Below the pieces are notes generated by a model. That model saw only the letters and a program-made list of their open reading frames with translations. It was not told where the DNA came from and did no database searches. A DNA stretch of 64,000 bases from Alphaproteobacteria bacterium (GTDB lineage Bacteria; Pseudomonadota; Alphaproteobacteria; Bin95). Below, piece after piece: positions 22,893 to 63,595 of this stretch (within the stretch, counting starts at the first letter, position 1; every line of letters starts with the position of its first letter). Location of the stretch: contig JAJDYL010000103.1 of NCBI GenBank assembly GCA_022825195.1, forward strand, positions 7,874 to 71,873, written 5' to 3'. The position numbers were made by a program, and so were the translations under genes.

Positions 22893-24103
22893 CGGCGCCT
22901 GTCGACAGCTTCTCCCGCGATGCGCGGGTCATCGGCCTCGTGGCCGCCGGGCACACCATGAGCCACATGTTCGTGTTCATGCTGCTGCCGCTTTCGGTGC
23001 GCATGCAGGACGAGCTGGGATTCAGCTATCTGGAGGTCGGCATCCTGGCGGGCGCCTTCTCGGTCGGCGCGGCGGTCTGCCAGACGGGCGTCGGATTCGT
23101 CGTGGACCGCATCGGCGGGCGGGTGCCGCTCATCATGGGCGTGGCCGTGCTCTCGGCGGCCGTCATGGGGTTCGGGCTGGTCTCCTCCTTCTGGGCCATG
23201 CTGCCGCTCGCGGTCATCGGCGGCGTCGCCAACTCCGTCTTCCACCCCGCCGACTACGCCATCCTCTCGGCTTCCGTCGCCGAGCACCGCATGGGGCGCG
23301 CCTTCTCCATCCATGCCGTCAGCGGCAATACCGGCTGGATCCTCGCGCTGCTGGGCCCCGACCTTGCCGATATCGTCGGCCTGAAGAACGTCTTCCTCGT
23401 GGCGGGCGGCATCGGGGTCGTCGTCTCCTTCGCCCTCCTGCTCCAGTCCCGGCATCTGGAAAGCGCCGAGGGCAGGGCAAGGCGGCGCGAGCAGGGCGGC
23501 TCGACCTCGGACGGGATCGCGCTCCTGCTGACGGTGCCGGTCATCCTGCTGTTCCTGTTCCAGATGTTCCATTCCATGTCGCTCGGCGGCATCCGCACCT
23601 TCGGCATCCCGGCGCTCCACGAATTGCGCGGCTTCGAGGACACGGTGCTGGCGAAGGCGCTGATCGCCTACATGGTGGCGGCCTCGGTCGGCAATCTCGC
23701 GGGCGGCTGGCTGGTGGACCGCACCGGGCGGCCGCAACTCGTGTTCTTCGGCGCCATCGGCACGGTCTTCCTCACGGTCAACATCATCGGCGCGGTTCCG
23801 CTGCCGCTCTACGGCATCGTGGCCCTGCTGCTCGTCGCCGGGGTCATGCACGGCGCGATCATGCCGACCCGGGACCTGCTGGTGCGCCGCATCTCGCCGC
23901 CGGGGCAGATGGGCAAGGTGTTCGGCTTCACCTCCACCGGGCTGTCCATCGGCGGCTTCATGGCGCCGGTCCTGTTCGGCTGGGTGATGGACATGGGCGA
24001 CCCGCGCTGGGTGTTCTTCGGCAGTGCGGCCGTCATGCTGCTCGCCGTCGCCACCTTCGTCGAAACCAGCCGCAATGCGGGCAGGGCAAGGGCAACGGCA
24101 TGA
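22889..24103 (+). CDS. MFS transporter
   Basis: 12-TM hydropathy pattern and MFS motifs; 4-nt overlap. Confidence 0.9.
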   Translation: MTAPVDSFSRDARVIGLVAAGHTMSHMFVFMLLPLSVRMQDELGFSYLEVGILAGAFSVGAAVCQTGVGFVVDRIGGRVPLIMGVAVLSAAVMGFGLVSSFWAMLPLAVIGGVANSVFHPADYAILSASVAEHRMGRAFSIHAVSGNTGWILALLGPDLADIVGLKNVFLVAGGIGVVVSFALLLQSRHLESAEGRARRREQGGSTSDGIALLLTVPVILLFLFQMFHSMSLGGIRTFGIPALHELRGFEDTVLAKALIAYMVAASVGNLAGGWLVDRTGRPQLVFFGAIGTVFLTVNIIGAVPLPLYGIVALLLVAGVMHGAIMPTRDLLVRRISPPGQMGKVFGFTSTGLSIGGFMAPVLFGWVMDMGDPRWVFFGSAAVMLLAVATFVETSRNAGRARATA

Positions 24104-24987
24104 AACAGCTTCCGACAGGCGACGAACTTTTCCTCGACCATGTGGGCTATTTCCTCGCCGACCTCGACGGGGCGGCGGCGCGGTTCGAACGGCTGGGCTT
24201 CACCGTGTCGCCCGTCAACATCCACTACAACAGCGCCGGCGGCGAACTCGTGCGGTCGGGCACGGCCAACCGCCTGATCACCTTCGAGGCGGGCTATATC
24301 GAGGCGCTGGGCCAGGTCGCGGACACGCCGCTCGGCGCGGAACTCGCCGCCGGCCTCGCGCGCTATGAGGGGCTGCACCTGCTCGCGCTCGCGCACGGGC
24401 GGGTCGAGGCGCACGATGTGGGCGGCACGGACATGCGCCCGACGGTCTTCCTGCGCCGCCCGCTGGAGGACGGGCGCATCGTGCGCGCGACCGTGCGCCG
24501 GGCGACGGCGGGGGCGATGCCGGAAGGCCGGGTGCAGCTGCTCACCCACGAGACGCCGGAGCTGATCTGGCTGCCGGGCATGGACCGCCACGCCAACGCC
24601 GCCCGCGCGCTTACCGGCTTCCTGCAGACCGTCGCCGACCCCGAAGAGGCGGCGGCGCGCTACGCCCGGTTCGCCAACCGCCCCGCGCGCAGGCTCGGCT
24701 CCGTCTTCGAGATCGCGCTGGACCGGGGCCGCTTTGCGCTTGCCGGGCCGGACGCGCTCGCCGCGCTGTTGCCTGCCGGAGAGCACCCGCCGCCGCCCTT
24801 CGGCGCCGCCGTCGGCATCGAAAGCGCCGACCTCGACCGCACGCGCTTCCTTCTTGCGAACGCCGGCATTACCGTCCACGCGCGGCCGGACCGCCTGCTG
24901 GTCCCGCCGCCGGAGGGACTGGGCGCCTGGATAGACTTCCACCGCCCCGACGCCCCGCCGCTCTGGGCCGCAGGGCCGGATTTGTAA
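24100..24987 (+). CDS. VOC (glyoxalase/bleomycin-resistance/dioxygenase) family protein
   Basis: …LFLDHVGYFLADLDGAAARFERLGF…; 4-nt overlap with the MFS gene. Confidence 0.7.
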   Translation: MKQLPTGDELFLDHVGYFLADLDGAAARFERLGFTVSPVNIHYNSAGGELVRSGTANRLITFEAGYIEALGQVADTPLGAELAAGLARYEGLHLLALAHGRVEAHDVGGTDMRPTVFLRRPLEDGRIVRATVRRATAGAMPEGRVQLLTHETPELIWLPGMDRHANAARALTGFLQTVADPEEAAARYARFANRPARRLGSVFEIALDRGRFALAGPDALAALLPAGEHPPPPFGAAVGIESADLDRTRFLLANAGITVHARPDRLLVPPPEGLGAWIDFHRPDAPPLWAAGPDL

Positions 24988-25130
24988 TACCGGCGGTACG
25001 GGGTTGCGACCCATAGGAGATGGCGCTCCACCGTCGCCCCGGCAGCCTCGGGTATCGGAGATGGGCCCCCGCTTTCGCGGGCGCGACGAAAAGCGGGCGG
25101 TAGTCGGGGGACCGGCGGAAGCGTCAGGAT

Positions 25131-25590
25131 ATGTCATGTTTTGTCATGAGGCCGGTCTGTGCCCGGCCGTTTGCTCCGGGCCGGCAGTCGCTCGCAAAGG
25201 CATTGCGGCTTCCTTTCCGTCCATGGTCCTCGGACGCCCGGTTGCCGGAGGAGCGTTCCCCTCCCGCGCATAATGCGCGCGCGCGTTTCGCGGCGGCGCG
25301 CGTGTGCGCCCGCGCGTGCGGGACGGCGGGGCCGTCCTCTCCATTGTGGATGTCATGAGATGTCATGTTTTGTCATGAGGCCGGTCTCCGTCCCGGCCGC
25401 TTGCGCCGGTCCGGCGGTCGTTCGCAGGGCATCGCGGCCTCCTTGTCGGTCCATGATCCCGGACGCCCGGTTGCCGGAGGCGCGTCCCCCTCCTGCGCAT
25501 AATGCGCGCGCGCGTTCGCGGCGGCGCGCGCGCGCCCGCGTGCGCGAGGCGGCGGGCGGGCCATTCCCCTCGACAAGCTCATGACAGGTT
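25131..25590. repeat. imperfect tandem duplication of a ~229-bp GC-rich structured unit; five forward and one inverted copy of TGTCATG(AG)
   Basis: Unit 1 starts at 25131 and unit 2 at 25360, both with ATGTCATGTTTTGTCATGAGGCCGG. Unit 2 is preceded by a third decamer (25351). The far end at 25578-25586 is CTCATGACA, the inverse of TGTCATGAG. Confidence 0.85.
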
Positions 25591-26085
25591 CTTTTGTCGC
25601 TCCGGCCCCCGAGCCGGGGTCCAGTCTCGGTCCTCGCGGCAGCCCCGGATACCCGGAACAAGTCCGGGCACGGTCCGGGGCAGGCCCCGGCAGTTGAGCC
25701 AGCTCTCCACCGGCTGCGGCATCATCGAGAGCCATGCATGGACCCCGGCTCGGAGGCCGGGGTGACAGTCGGGGGGCATGCGACGCGAAGCCAACGCCGG
25801 AGATGTGTGCATCGGGTAGCGGTTGGGGGCGGGGATCGTTCACGGTCATTCGTGCCTCCTCCCTGGGGACCATGGGCGGGACGGGGTGTCCCTGTTTCGC
25901 GCGTTATCGTGCGCCGGTGCGTGCGTGGGCGCGGGCGGGCGTATCGCGGCGGCGCGGTTCACGCGCGTGATTGCCCGCGCGCACGGGCGCGCGGCGGCAG
26001 GCCGGCCGGAGGGCGCACCCCTCCCGCCTGCTCACGCCGGGGGTTTTGCGGCCCCCAGCCATTGCTTTCTGCAGAAAAGCGGAAC

Positions 26086-26112
26086 GGCGGCCCCGGAAGC
26101 CGCCTTTCTCTC
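26086..26112 (+). terminator. GC hairpin GGCGGC-cccggaa-GCCGCC followed by TTTCTCTC
   Basis: Read directly; the T-rich tail is only moderate. Confidence 0.4.
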
Positions 26113-26332
26113 ATGCCTATTCTACACCATTCCTCGGAAAGTCAAGCCATTTGGGAACAAAAAATGAAAAACCGGACAACTTTCTCACAACCCGTTGAAC
26201 CGGCAGGACAATATCGGTGTTGCCGGATTGGGACCCATGAGGAACAGCGCTCCACCGCCGCCCCGGCCCCGGCCTTTGCGGAGGCAGCGAAGGGGCGGCC
26301 CCGTCATCGGTTCCGGTCGATGCCCGCTGGTA

Positions 26333-26956
26333 TCAGACCTCCTGCGCCTTGAGGCCGCGCTGCACGGCGGGCCGCGCGGTCATGATGTCGAACCAGCGCT
26401 TCACATTGGGGAAGCGGTCGAAGTCGAGGTCGATCCACTCATGGCGGCAGGCCCAGGGATAGACGGCGATATCCGCGATCGAATAGTCGTCGCAGAGGAA
26501 GTCCCGCCCCTCCAGCCGCCGGTCCATGACGCCGTAGAGCCGGTAGGTCTCCTGGGTGTAGCGCTCGATGCCGTAGGGCACCTCCACCTTGGCGGCGCGG
26601 CGGAAATGGTGCGCCTGGCCCTGCATCGGCCCGACGCCGCCCATCTGCCACATCAGCCATTGCAGCACCTCGAGGCGCCGTCGCGGCTCCGTCGGCCAGA
26701 GGGGGCTGCCGGTCTTCTCGGCGAGATAGATCAGGATGGCGCCGCTCTCGAACAGCGAGACCGGCCCGCCGCCGGGGCCGTCGGGGTCGACGATGGCCGG
26801 GATGCGGTTGTTGGGGCTGATCTTCAGGAAGTCGGGATGGAACTGCTCGTCCTTGCCGATATTGACCGGGTGCCACTGGTATTCCAGCCCCAGCTCCTCC
26901 AGCATGATCGAAATCTTGCGCCCGTTGGACGTGTTCCAGCTATGGAGATGAATCAT
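26333..26956 (-). CDS. glutathione S-transferase, YfcG/Nu-class-like
   Basis: Close to E. coli YfcG throughout (…ISPNNRIPAIVDP…SLFESGAILIYLAEKTG…IERY…ETYRLY…). Confidence 0.9.
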   Translation of the reverse strand: MIHLHSWNTSNGRKISIMLEELGLEYQWHPVNIGKDEQFHPDFLKISPNNRIPAIVDPDGPGGGPVSLFESGAILIYLAEKTGSPLWPTEPRRRLEVLQWLMWQMGGVGPMQGQAHHFRRAAKVEVPYGIERYTQETYRLYGVMDRRLEGRDFLCDDYSIADIAVYPWACRHEWIDLDFDRFPNVKRWFDIMTARPAVQRGLKAQEV

Positions 26957-62562: not shown

Positions 62563-63480
62563 ATGGGTCCGCTTCCCGCCTCTCCGGCCCGGCGCCGGAA
62601 CGACCCCCTTTCGACGCACAGGCGAAGTGCGCCCGCCATCGCCCTCTCCACACGCCAGGAAGCCTTCTGCCGCCACTATGCCGTCTCCGGCAATGCCGCC
62701 GGCGCCGCAAGGCAGGCCGGCTATGCGGAGCGTTCCGCCCGCCAGACCGGCTGCGCCCTGCTGGAGCGGCCCTACATCATCGAGCGCCTGCGCCGCATCC
62801 GGCTCTCGTGGAAGCGCACGGAGAGGGACGAGGCGGGCATCCTGCTGGCCCGGCTGGAGCAGGCGTGGGACGCGGCCGTTGTCGCCGGGTCCGCCTACCT
62901 GATGCTGCGGGTGCTGCGCTTCCAGGCGGAGATCGTGGGGCTGGCCGGGTCCGGCGGCGGGAACCGGGCCCGGCTCTGGCCGGTGGCGCACGAGGACGAG
63001 CTCGGGGAGATCGAAGCCGGGGAGGCGCGGGAGGCGGGCACCGAACCCGGCCCGCTCGCCGAGGCCGTCGAGGAGCGCACGCGCCTGCCCGTCAGCTTCG
63101 CGGCCCCGGCCCCGGCGAACGACCTTCCCCCCGCCGACGACCCGCCGGAGGAGACCTGCGAATACTGCCCCTGGGACAGCGGCGACCGGGAGGGGGCCGA
63201 CCGGGACCGGAAGGACGACGACCGGGCCGACGGCGCGGAGCATGACTGGCTCCACCAGCGCCGCCACGGCTACGGCGACATCTACGACCCGTGGGCGCCG
63301 GAGGAGGTCGCGGAGCGCAGGCGGACCCGGCTCGAACGGGAAGCGGAGGACCGCTGCGCCCGCGAGGACCGGACCGGACCGGCGAAGAGGAAGAAGAAAA
63401 AGAAGAAGACCGGGCGGACGGGGACCGGTTCGACCGCGTGGATTTCGCCCCCGGCCATGACGGAACATGACAATTCATGA
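62563..63480 (+). CDS. phage terminase small subunit-like protein (Terminase_2-type HTH N-domain) with a low-complexity acidic/poly-Lys C-terminus
   Basis: …STRQEAFCRHYAVSGNAAGAARQAGYAERSARQTGCALLERPYIIERL… matches the TerS N-domain; the C-terminus is …KRKKKKKKTGRTG…. Trimmed to MGPLPASP…. Confidence 0.6.
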   Translation: MGPLPASPARRRNDPLSTHRRSAPAIALSTRQEAFCRHYAVSGNAAGAARQAGYAERSARQTGCALLERPYIIERLRRIRLSWKRTERDEAGILLARLEQAWDAAVVAGSAYLMLRVLRFQAEIVGLAGSGGGNRARLWPVAHEDELGEIEAGEAREAGTEPGPLAEAVEERTRLPVSFAAPAPANDLPPADDPPEETCEYCPWDSGDREGADRDRKDDDRADGAEHDWLHQRRHGYGDIYDPWAPEEVAERRRTRLEREAEDRCAREDRTGPAKRKKKKKKTGRTGTGSTAWISPPAMTEHDNS

Positions 63481-63595
63481 CATTTCCGGGAGGGTCCCCG
63501 CTCCCCGTTCGCGGGGCCGGCGGCCGTGCCCGGCAAACGGAAAAAGGGCCGGCTTGGGAGCCGGCCCTTTCCCTGTCCTTGCGCCCGGAGGCGGG

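Follow-up and report, generated by a model that had tools for sequence, protein, structure and literature searches.

Direct repeats in helical phase are known from several bacterial systems. The Pho box of Escherichia coli has the consensus CTGTCAT-N4-CTGTCAT, some regulators of the OmpR family have decameric direct repeats as their sites (e.g. the tor boxes of TorR), and the iterons of replication origins are typically 17–22 bp long. Direct repeats also occur in bacteriophages: the pac site of phage SPP1 has direct repeats at the gene for the small terminase subunit (terS), and in the rings formed by small terminases adjacent helix-turn-helix motifs (HTHs) lie about one turn of B-DNA apart, the DNA being thought to wrap around the ring (PMC4737164). 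The subject of the present analysis is a 460-bp tandem repeat (positions 25131–25590) in a stretch of 64,000 nucleotides (nt) from an alphaproteobacterial contig (JAJDYL010000103.1, positions 7,874 to 71,873), referred to here as the window, the sequence of which belongs to an 82.7-kb metagenome scaffold (ENA ERZ23491646). The repeat consists of two units and carries arrays of the heptamer TGTCATG with a period of 10 bp, for which an earlier note had suggested a Pho-box-like or iteron-like role. It is well supported that the element belongs to a dispersed family of intergenic mosaic repeats, restricted to a high-GC clade of sponge-associated alphaproteobacteria. This family is previously undescribed. 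Literature searches on TGTCATG direct repeats and on terminase small subunits of sponge symbionts yielded nothing relevant. The array is more likely to be a docking site for terminase-like proteins than an element of a phosphate regulon or of a plasmid origin.

The heptamer TGTCATG is present in the window in 13 copies, where 3.9 are expected, and the paired pattern TGTCATG-N3-TGTCATG, with up to two mismatches, matches six times, where 0.08 matches are expected and none of 100 shuffles equals the count; the excess beyond chance claimed for the motif is thus borne out. Within the repeat, the heptamer is found on the plus strand at 25132, 25142, 25351, 25361 and 25371 (the last three being the consecutive decamers that had been noticed at the junction of the units) and on the minus strand at 25580. 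A degenerate third decamer, cGTCAgG, precedes unit 1 at 25122, so that three decamers stand at the start of each unit. All three arrays of the window (A1, A2 and A3), and 114 arrays of related genomes, have a period of exactly 10 bp. In these 114 arrays, 289 of 358 heptamers are exact copies of TGTCATG, the consensus order is GAAR-TGTCATG-AAA-TGTCATG-TTT-TGTCATG, and the spacers are specific to their positions: purine-rich (AAA, GAA or AAG) after the first heptamer, TTT, TTC or CGA after the second, and GAAR before the array. There are three or four decamers per array, and orthologous loci differ by insertions or deletions of exactly 10 nt. The opposite strand of each decamer reads CATGACA and, because 10 mod 3 is 1, three decamers give a TGA in all three reading frames of that strand, as is seen for A1 on the minus strand.

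The spread of the arrays was determined with the pattern GTCANG-N3-TGTCATG-N4-GTCATG (18 specified bases) in one genome per species, a total of 596 gigabases (Gb), in which about 17 matches would be expected by chance if base composition were uniform. At least 110 loci were found. Among the matches listed, about 85 loci come from about 21 related high-GC alphaproteobacterial metagenome-assembled genomes (MAGs), the record titles of which point to sponges (e.g. Spongia_Bin9), and 12 loci or more lie on a single chromosome (OY730441). The remaining listed loci are microsatellites of GTCAT or belong to Dyadobacter, where long arrays of TTGTCATG decamers are found. The Dyadobacter arrays (L040, L069, L075, L082, L101 and L112) have far more than three to four units, belong to Bacteroidota genomes with 44–53% GC, have no terminase-like gene near them, and appear unrelated to the alphaproteobacterial element. 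A further 20 matches to the array pattern in viral contigs were rejected as chance matches in AT-rich sequence.

The arrays are either intergenic or overlap just the last five codons of a gene, and they occupy two kinds of site: the edges of long non-coding stretches and the stop codons of two gene families (fam1 and fam2). They stay at syntenic positions between species while the numbers of units and of decamers change. At one orthologous site, recognized by a common neighbour gene 66–67 nt away in two species, L058 and L113 differ by one array-plus-body unit of about 240 nt; the number of units therefore varies between related genomes, as had been proposed for comparison. An earlier proviso was that the repeat might be a common dispersed element of the REP (repetitive extragenic palindromic) or RIME type, without positional specificity. 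Dispersed it is, but its placement and orientation follow a clear logic in relation to a promoter-bearing module (module D, below) and to the two gene families.

In nine of ten occurrences, the sequence GGGCCCACTCCA lies 5–8 bp from an array (L026, L030, L038, L053, L056, L057, L084, L094 and L107; an example is L056:4641–4700). This sequence is the ..CA end of an insertion sequence (IS) of the IS3 family, of which the transposase open reading frame (ORF) is seen in L056, and it is always one and the same end that is turned toward the array. This suggests that insertion beside the arrays is targeted, and also that the array is structurally special (bent) or occupied by protein.

The repeat of the window lies in a gap of 1345 bp (24988–26332) between two convergent genes, and blastn comparison of this gap with 110 loci defined four modules: the arrays (A), the unit body (B), a palindromic element (C) and a promoter and leader (D). 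The coordinates of these and other features are collected in Table 1. Module B has homologues in L102, L056 and L076, and two in L109. Element C is inserted between unit 2 and module D and has copies in at least 10 related loci, in both orientations; it seems to represent a repeat family in its own right, of the REP type or of the miniature inverted-repeat transposable element (MITE) type. For module D, 51 copies of the core and 24 of the distal part were counted. On the minus strand, module D has a promoter comprising CTTGAC (26146–26141), a 16-nt spacer and TAGAAT (26124–26119); alignment of the copies shows no variation in the −35 core TTGAC or at positions 1, 2, 5 and 6 of the −10 element, and the sequence of the spacer is variable. 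There follow a hairpin (26104–26086) with a U-rich tract after it, a GC-rich leader designated Dcore (25990–25877, containing GCAATCAGGCGCGCGAACCGCGCCGGCGC) that is almost invariant across 40 copies, a strong Shine–Dalgarno sequence (SD), GGGAGGAGG, at 25864–25856, and an ATG (25849–25847) that opens an ORF beginning MTVNDPRPQ, which is the N-terminus of fam2. The stretch of about 30 nt in Dcore, GCAATCAGGCGCGCGAACCGCGCCGGCGC, is near-invariant between species and is apparently better conserved than the adjacent coding sequence, without covariation.

Table 1. Features of the window that are discussed in the text (positions counted from the first nucleotide of the window)
Feature	Position	Strand	Description
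Glyoxalase_3 protein gene	24100–24987	+	flank of gap
Bracketing direct repeat, left copy	24986–25043	+	58 nt, imperfect, 80% identical to right copy
Array A1	25122–25148	+	cGTCAgG-ata-TGTCATG-ttt-TGTCATG; three decamers, 10-bp period
Unit 1 body, gene-less mini-cassette	25149–25350	-	Dcore-like GC-rich piece, palindrome GCGCATtATGCGC, hairpin GGAGG..CCTCC
Array A2	25351–25377	+	TGTCATG-aga-TGTCATG-ttt-TGTCATG; three decamers
Unit 2 body, mini-cassette	25378–25565	-	SD AAGGAGG 25444–25438, ATG 25432–25430
Motif CCCCTCGACAAGCTCATGACAGG	25566–25588		local copy of recurrent motif CCCCTTCGACAAGCTCNGGACAGG
Element C, palindromic dispersed repeat, about 170 bp	25595–25767		arms 25595–25636 and 25726–25767 (42 nt, 79% complementary)
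Module D	25822–26200	-	promoter, two hairpins, Dcore leader, SD, ATG
Bracketing direct repeat, right copy	26210–26267	+	partner of 24986–25043
Glutathione S-transferase (GST) gene	26333–26956	-	flank of gap
fam1 gene P0001, 305 amino acids	62563–63480	+	G1P-type small-terminase DNA-binding domain, long helices, disordered charged C-terminus
Array A3	63456–63482	-	TGTCATG-aat-TGTCATG-ttc-CGTCATG; covers last codons and stop of terminase-like gene

In about 50 loci, an array and Dcore are found in the same orientation, 0.1–1.2 kb apart, with either nothing or a gene on the opposite strand between them. The order on the strand of the D promoter is promoter, leader, gene or nothing, array. A full cassette has a promoter of the sigma-70 type, a conserved leader of about 250 nt and an SD, then a fam1 or fam2 gene, and then three to four copies of CATGACA-N3, within which the stop codon lies. 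An idea that the array might serve as a −35 surrogate, based on a CATAT exactly 17 nt after one class of arrays, was rejected: the CATAT belongs to the 3′ end of the fam2 coding sequence, on the other strand.

The fam1 gene of the window, P0001, ends in ..AMTEHDNS*, encoded by array A3. Members of fam1 match the Pfam family Terminase_2 and the PHROG families for terS (small terminase). In the AlphaFold model the N-terminal domain (residues 30–128) is confident, and it resembles the DNA-binding domain of the small terminase G1P of phage SF6 (4zc3) with 39% identity, a template-modelling (TM) score of 0.85 and a root-mean-square deviation of 1.5 Å; it also matches the full-length SPP1-like small terminase 3zqq. 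There are more than 338 sequence clusters of fam1, with several paralogues per chromosome at 60–75% identity. The HTH residues S58–G63 are invariant in 32 paralogues, whereas the rest of the protein diverges. The tail ..HD(K/I/R/N)(T/A/S/P) is present in 106 of the 120 best fam1 homologues (88%) and, because HDxx is the translation of CAT GAC xxx xxx TGA, the stop codon of fam1 lies inside the array. The C-termini of fam1 paralogues are highly variable, with runs of lysine (KRKKKKKK at 63385–63410 of the window), poly-D/E in L048, and repeats such as PTGD or GDEPA in L036 and L050. The neighbours of the window copy are genes for an ABC transporter, a dioxygenase and a molybdopterin oxidoreductase, and fam1 stands alone in every locus found by tblastn. 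A hairpin, aaaaaGGGCCGGCttgggaGCCGGCCCtttcc, resembling a bidirectional terminator, lies at 63530–63560, between fam1 with its array A3 and the convergent molybdopterin-oxidoreductase gene.

The second family, fam2, comprises proteins of about 200 amino acids that start with MTATDPRP (177 clusters). No match was found in Pfam, NCBIfam or PADLOC, there was no structural neighbour, and there is no similarity to fam1. The array-encoded HDxx* end is present in 64 of 120 fam2 homologues. In three loci (L028, L065 and L129) there are short versions, in which the leader, the SD and the fam2 start (MTATDP or MTATGP) are kept and the ORF stops at the TGA of the array after 32–35 codons, L028 having about 22 fam2-like residues; these short versions are read as internal-deletion derivatives.

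The two units of the window (25131–25359 and 25360–25590) are 86% identical over 210 nt by blastn, with several 1–2-nt insertions or deletions in a MAFFT alignment, and the repeat families D2, D14 and D18 of the window, found by a repeat search, have spacings of 228–229 nt. They are thus homologous with small indels, as had been claimed. They were also said to be non-coding, and the codon-position GC content agrees: third-position GC reaches 0.9 or more in both flanking genes, whereas in the gap each of the three phases stays at about 0.7, and the gap is therefore non-coding (overall GC is 69% in the window and 68–74% in the repeat region). Read on the minus strand, and following element C and module D, each unit has a fragment resembling the Dcore leader, the palindrome GCGCATtATGCGC, a GGAGG..CCTCC hairpin, an SD, an ATG, 19 codons and a TGA provided by the array. 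In unit 1 the SD is weak (GGAAAGGAAG), the ATG is at 25203–25201 and the 19-codon mini-ORF stops at a TGA within A1 (25146–25144); in unit 2 the mini-ORF, also of 19 codons, stops at a TGA within A2 (25375–25373). The SD–ATG region of both units is similar to the start of fam2. Because the units keep the leader piece, SD, ATG, 19 codons and array, they can be regarded as internal-deletion derivatives duplicated head to tail; that the 460-bp element is a tandem duplication of a gene-less mini-cassette is well supported. The SD–ATG and the mini-ORF keep their position in units 1 and 2 and in L102, L056, L109 and L076. The peptide itself is not conserved, since indels put the peptides of units 1 and 2 into different frames.

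Two further features had been ascribed to the units, inverted termini and conserved stems. The 9-mer CTCATGACA at 25578–25586, taken for an inverted decamer at the far end, proved to be a local variant of a separate motif, CCCCTTCGACAAGCTC(A/G/C)GGACAGG, which recurs in L033, L054, L076 and L102 and of which the copy in the window, CCCCTCGACAAGCTCATGACAGG, has CTCATGACA embedded in it (the motif is CCCCTTCGACAAGCTCNGGACAGG in its recurrent form). The resemblance arises because two bases differ here and because TCATGA is its own reverse complement. Since CTCATGACA is part of a different motif, the element is without inverted termini. The stems do exist in the unit interiors, yet compensatory changes in them are almost absent: for the unit body, RNAalifold gave a covariation term of about zero on either strand, and for Dcore (40 copies) the helix counts were not above those of shuffles, nor was a hand-specified 7-bp helix above its controls. 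A search of the window against Rfam, both at the gathering threshold and at E ≤ 5, gave nothing but a tRNA at another place in the window and a microRNA hit due to chance. No sigma-70 consensus promoter was found within the units.

The whole composite of arrays, C and D is enclosed by a 58-nt direct repeat, the left copy of which begins at the stop codon of the Glyoxalase_3 gene. This repeat was not found in other loci, and bracketing direct repeats are clear in only one or two of 21 composites (that of the window and perhaps L049). In the nearest relatives of the Glyoxalase_3 gene (87% nucleotide identity), homology does not extend past the stop codon and there is no composite, which implies that the locus is evolutionarily unstable. 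Elsewhere in the window, at about 2260–2520, a non-coding stretch of about 260 bp immediately beyond the 5′ end of a minus-strand ORF is strikingly AT-rich, with repeats like TATATGGCC/TATAGG, in spite of the 69% GC of the genome.

The explanation that accounts best for these findings, put forward tentatively, is that the element is a member of a family of oriented cassettes in which the array may serve as a docking site for proteins of the fam1 type. Three to four identical heptamers, spaced by one helical turn, point to a protein multimer on one face of the DNA. This much agrees with the earlier idea of protein binding in helical phase, which is favoured by the exact 10-bp period, the three to four heptamers and the position-specific, A/T-rich spacers; the specific binders proposed with it are unsupported. 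The array would be a cis-acting site to which a multimeric protein binds along one face of the helix, and the best candidate for this protein is fam1, whose ring-forming relatives have HTHs about one DNA turn apart and wrap DNA. The invariant HTH residues of fam1 may correspond to the single heptamer that is invariant across the clade, and arrays without a gene could be extra docking sites for the same proteins. The bound complex might then mark DNA in the manner of a pac site, act as a roadblock or insulator at the end of the cassette, or be a scaffold for recombination.

Several points weigh against this explanation. The DNA-binding domain of SF6 G1P has a low affinity for DNA and discriminates little between sequences (PMC4737164). 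The fam1 proteins cover just the first half of the Terminase_2 profile (positions 2–70 of 141), their C-termini are predicted to be disordered, and neither a large terminase nor other phage genes were found beside fam1. In the loci read, arrays are far more numerous than fam1 genes, and genes of fam2, which is unrelated, are capped by them as well; the link between fam1 and the array could therefore reflect shared ancestry within a cassette and not recognition. Dcore is conserved even more strongly than the array, for which the explanation does not account. The composite is missing 3′ of the closest orthologues of the flanking gene, a situation that selfish or unstable DNA fits equally well.

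The strongest of the rival explanations, which overlaps in part with the docking-site explanation, is that the composites are selfish or mobile cassettes multiplying by some form of transposition or site-specific recombination, in which module D and the array are asymmetric ends, the array is the cis-acting site of the recombinase and not of fam1, and the gene-less units are MITE-like, non-autonomous derivatives. This is a possibility to be taken seriously, albeit an unlikely one. It would account for the multiple copies with their fixed end-to-end orientation, the internal-deletion derivatives, the variable number of units at orthologous sites, the insertion of IS elements beside arrays, the 58-nt repeat that brackets the composite of the window, and the absence of that composite from the nearest relatives, in which synteny is lost precisely at the flanking gene's stop codon. 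However, the cassettes are accompanied by neither a transposase nor an integrase, terminal inverted repeats are absent, and bracketing repeats are as rare as described above; moreover, the 60–75% identity of fam1 paralogues indicates old divergence rather than recent bursts, and several arrays have been kept at syntenic positions across species. A larger mobile unit was also considered, namely a 38-kb Tn7/Mu-like element ended by the inverted arrays at 25.1 and 63.4 kb, and was rejected, as arrays are dispersed over more than 100 loci, where each has a partner module close by.

Three other explanations rank below that of a mobile cassette. That the units are genes for small RNAs (sRNAs) or leader peptides, with the array as a three-frame stop, a 3′-end motif or the site of an RNA-binding protein, seems improbable: the SD–ATG and mini-ORF hold their position, a TGA is provided in every frame, and a credible promoter in D would drive transcription toward the array, but the mini-ORF peptides are unconserved with frame-shifting indels, neither the unit body nor Dcore has significant covariation, there is no Rfam match, and it is hard to see what an exact phasing of 10 bp would mean in RNA. 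The RNA-level function once considered for the units thus finds no backing in either Rfam or covariation. The proposal of a Pho box is a special case of a regulon operator, in which arrays would be bound by a regulator of the OmpR/PhoB family (Pho-box- or TorR-like), or by another transcription factor, controlling the neighbouring genes. The TGTCA core with its A/T-rich spacer does resemble a Pho-box half-site, and, when the opposite strand is read, a gene in the same direction lies within 320 nt of about 40% of arrays. Against this, the period measures 10 bp, where a Pho box has 11 bp, there is no −10 element at a fixed distance in a profile of 112 arrays, many arrays overlap the stop codons of convergent genes, and the 42 nearest co-directional genes are functionally unrelated (among them cysS, mnmG, ilvD, eno, dapF and genes for thioredoxin, a small heat-shock protein and an amidase). 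With more than 100 arrays across the clade, placed at edges and stop codons beside unrelated housekeeping or metabolic genes, the Pho-box proposal finds no support, and an operator of any kind is regarded as very improbable. Least probable of all are iterons of a replication origin, of a plasmid or an integrated replicon, for which direct repeats in helical phase are the sole support and which are effectively refuted by the genomic distribution. The units measure 10 bp and not the 17–22 bp that is typical, there is no rep gene, DnaA box or AT-rich unwinding element in this region of 68–74% GC, a search of a plasmid database matched only the GST gene, and arrays are scattered over the chromosomes in dozens of copies each; the iteron part of the earlier proposal fails on the same grounds.

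A more specific version of the docking-site explanation, in which the sponge-symbiont clade has domesticated a G1P-type small terminase and expanded it to several paralogues per genome that dock on dispersed cognate decamer arrays, is rather doubtful on present evidence. If it were true, the arrays would form a chromosomal, pac-like network by which host DNA is marked for packaging or for gene transfer, or would be sites of wrapped nucleoprotein complexes at the ends of genes, and gene-less arrays such as the tandem pair of the window would be additional docking sites. Were the arrays the cognate sites of a stand-alone terminase-like family, this would be a rare case of a phage recognition module and its site being multiplied chromosome-wide outside a prophage, with a bearing on DNA exchange or organization in uncultured sponge symbionts. 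The repeat family itself (the array, the D leader and two orphan gene families) can be searched for and marks a whole clade of sponge symbionts; it accounts for the long GC-rich non-coding gaps in these genomes and for the odd HDxx C-termini of hundreds of predicted proteins. The arrays are also a natural target-site system for an IS3-type element, and they illustrate that a look-alike of the Pho box can be something quite different.

Compared with known systems, the array resembles the Pho box and other operators of the OmpR family in its TGTCA(T) core, in its A/T-rich spacers and in the helical phasing of its head-to-tail repeats, but it has three to four repeats with a 10-bp instead of an 11-bp period, is not located at the −35 region of promoters (the Pho box replaces the −35 at phosphate-starvation promoters) and has no coherent set of target genes. 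Unlike an iteron-bearing oriV, it has 10-bp units, is flanked by Glyoxalase_3 and GST genes at a GC content of 0.68–0.74, and is present in many copies per chromosome. The array and D ends of the composite are unrelated, in contrast to the terminal inverted repeats with target-site duplication of a MITE, and neither the covariation that would characterize a structured non-coding RNA or sRNA nor, within the units, a sigma-70 consensus promoter was found. The resemblance to integron cassettes is in the layout: a promoter module is followed by tandem units in the same orientation, each ending in a conserved 3′ element, and what lies between the conserved flanks is a variable ORF or none. There is no integrase, however, the 3′ element consists of direct decamers where attC is an imperfect palindrome, and the tandem units of the window are copies of one another, not different cassettes.

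The element can also be compared with the intergenic mosaic repeats RIME of rhizobia, NIME/dRS3 of Neisseria and BIME/REP of enterobacteria. Like them, the present family is clade-specific, dispersed and intergenic (at least 110 loci, with about 85 in one clade among the matches listed), is made up of a few modules (A, B, C and D) in variable number, varies in copy number at orthologous loci, and is targeted by IS elements. The differences are that the core module is a phased direct-repeat array and not a hairpin-forming imperfect palindrome, only the neighbouring element C being palindromic, and that the modules are oriented relative to a promoter module and enclose two coding families with the stop codon in the repeat.

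The fam1 cassettes can be compared with the pac sites of phages of the SPP1/SF6 type, which the small terminase G1P recognizes. The pac site of SPP1 spans promoters and the start of terS, whereas the array here lies on the stop codon; there is no packaging module nearby, i.e., no terL, portal, or capsid and head genes; there are several paralogues per genome here, and arrays far outnumber fam1 in the loci read; and fam1 has no recognizable C-terminal terminase part, while arrays also cap an unrelated family. On the other side, the adjacent protein has an HTH domain of the G1P type, with the identity and TM score given above, and short direct repeats are physically tied to a terS-like, HTH-encoding gene, A3 lying over the stop codon of fam1 in the window and the same arrangement being found in 106 of 120 homologues. 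Finally, the repeats are spaced by one helical turn, which matches the spacing of the HTHs in terminase rings (PMC4737164).

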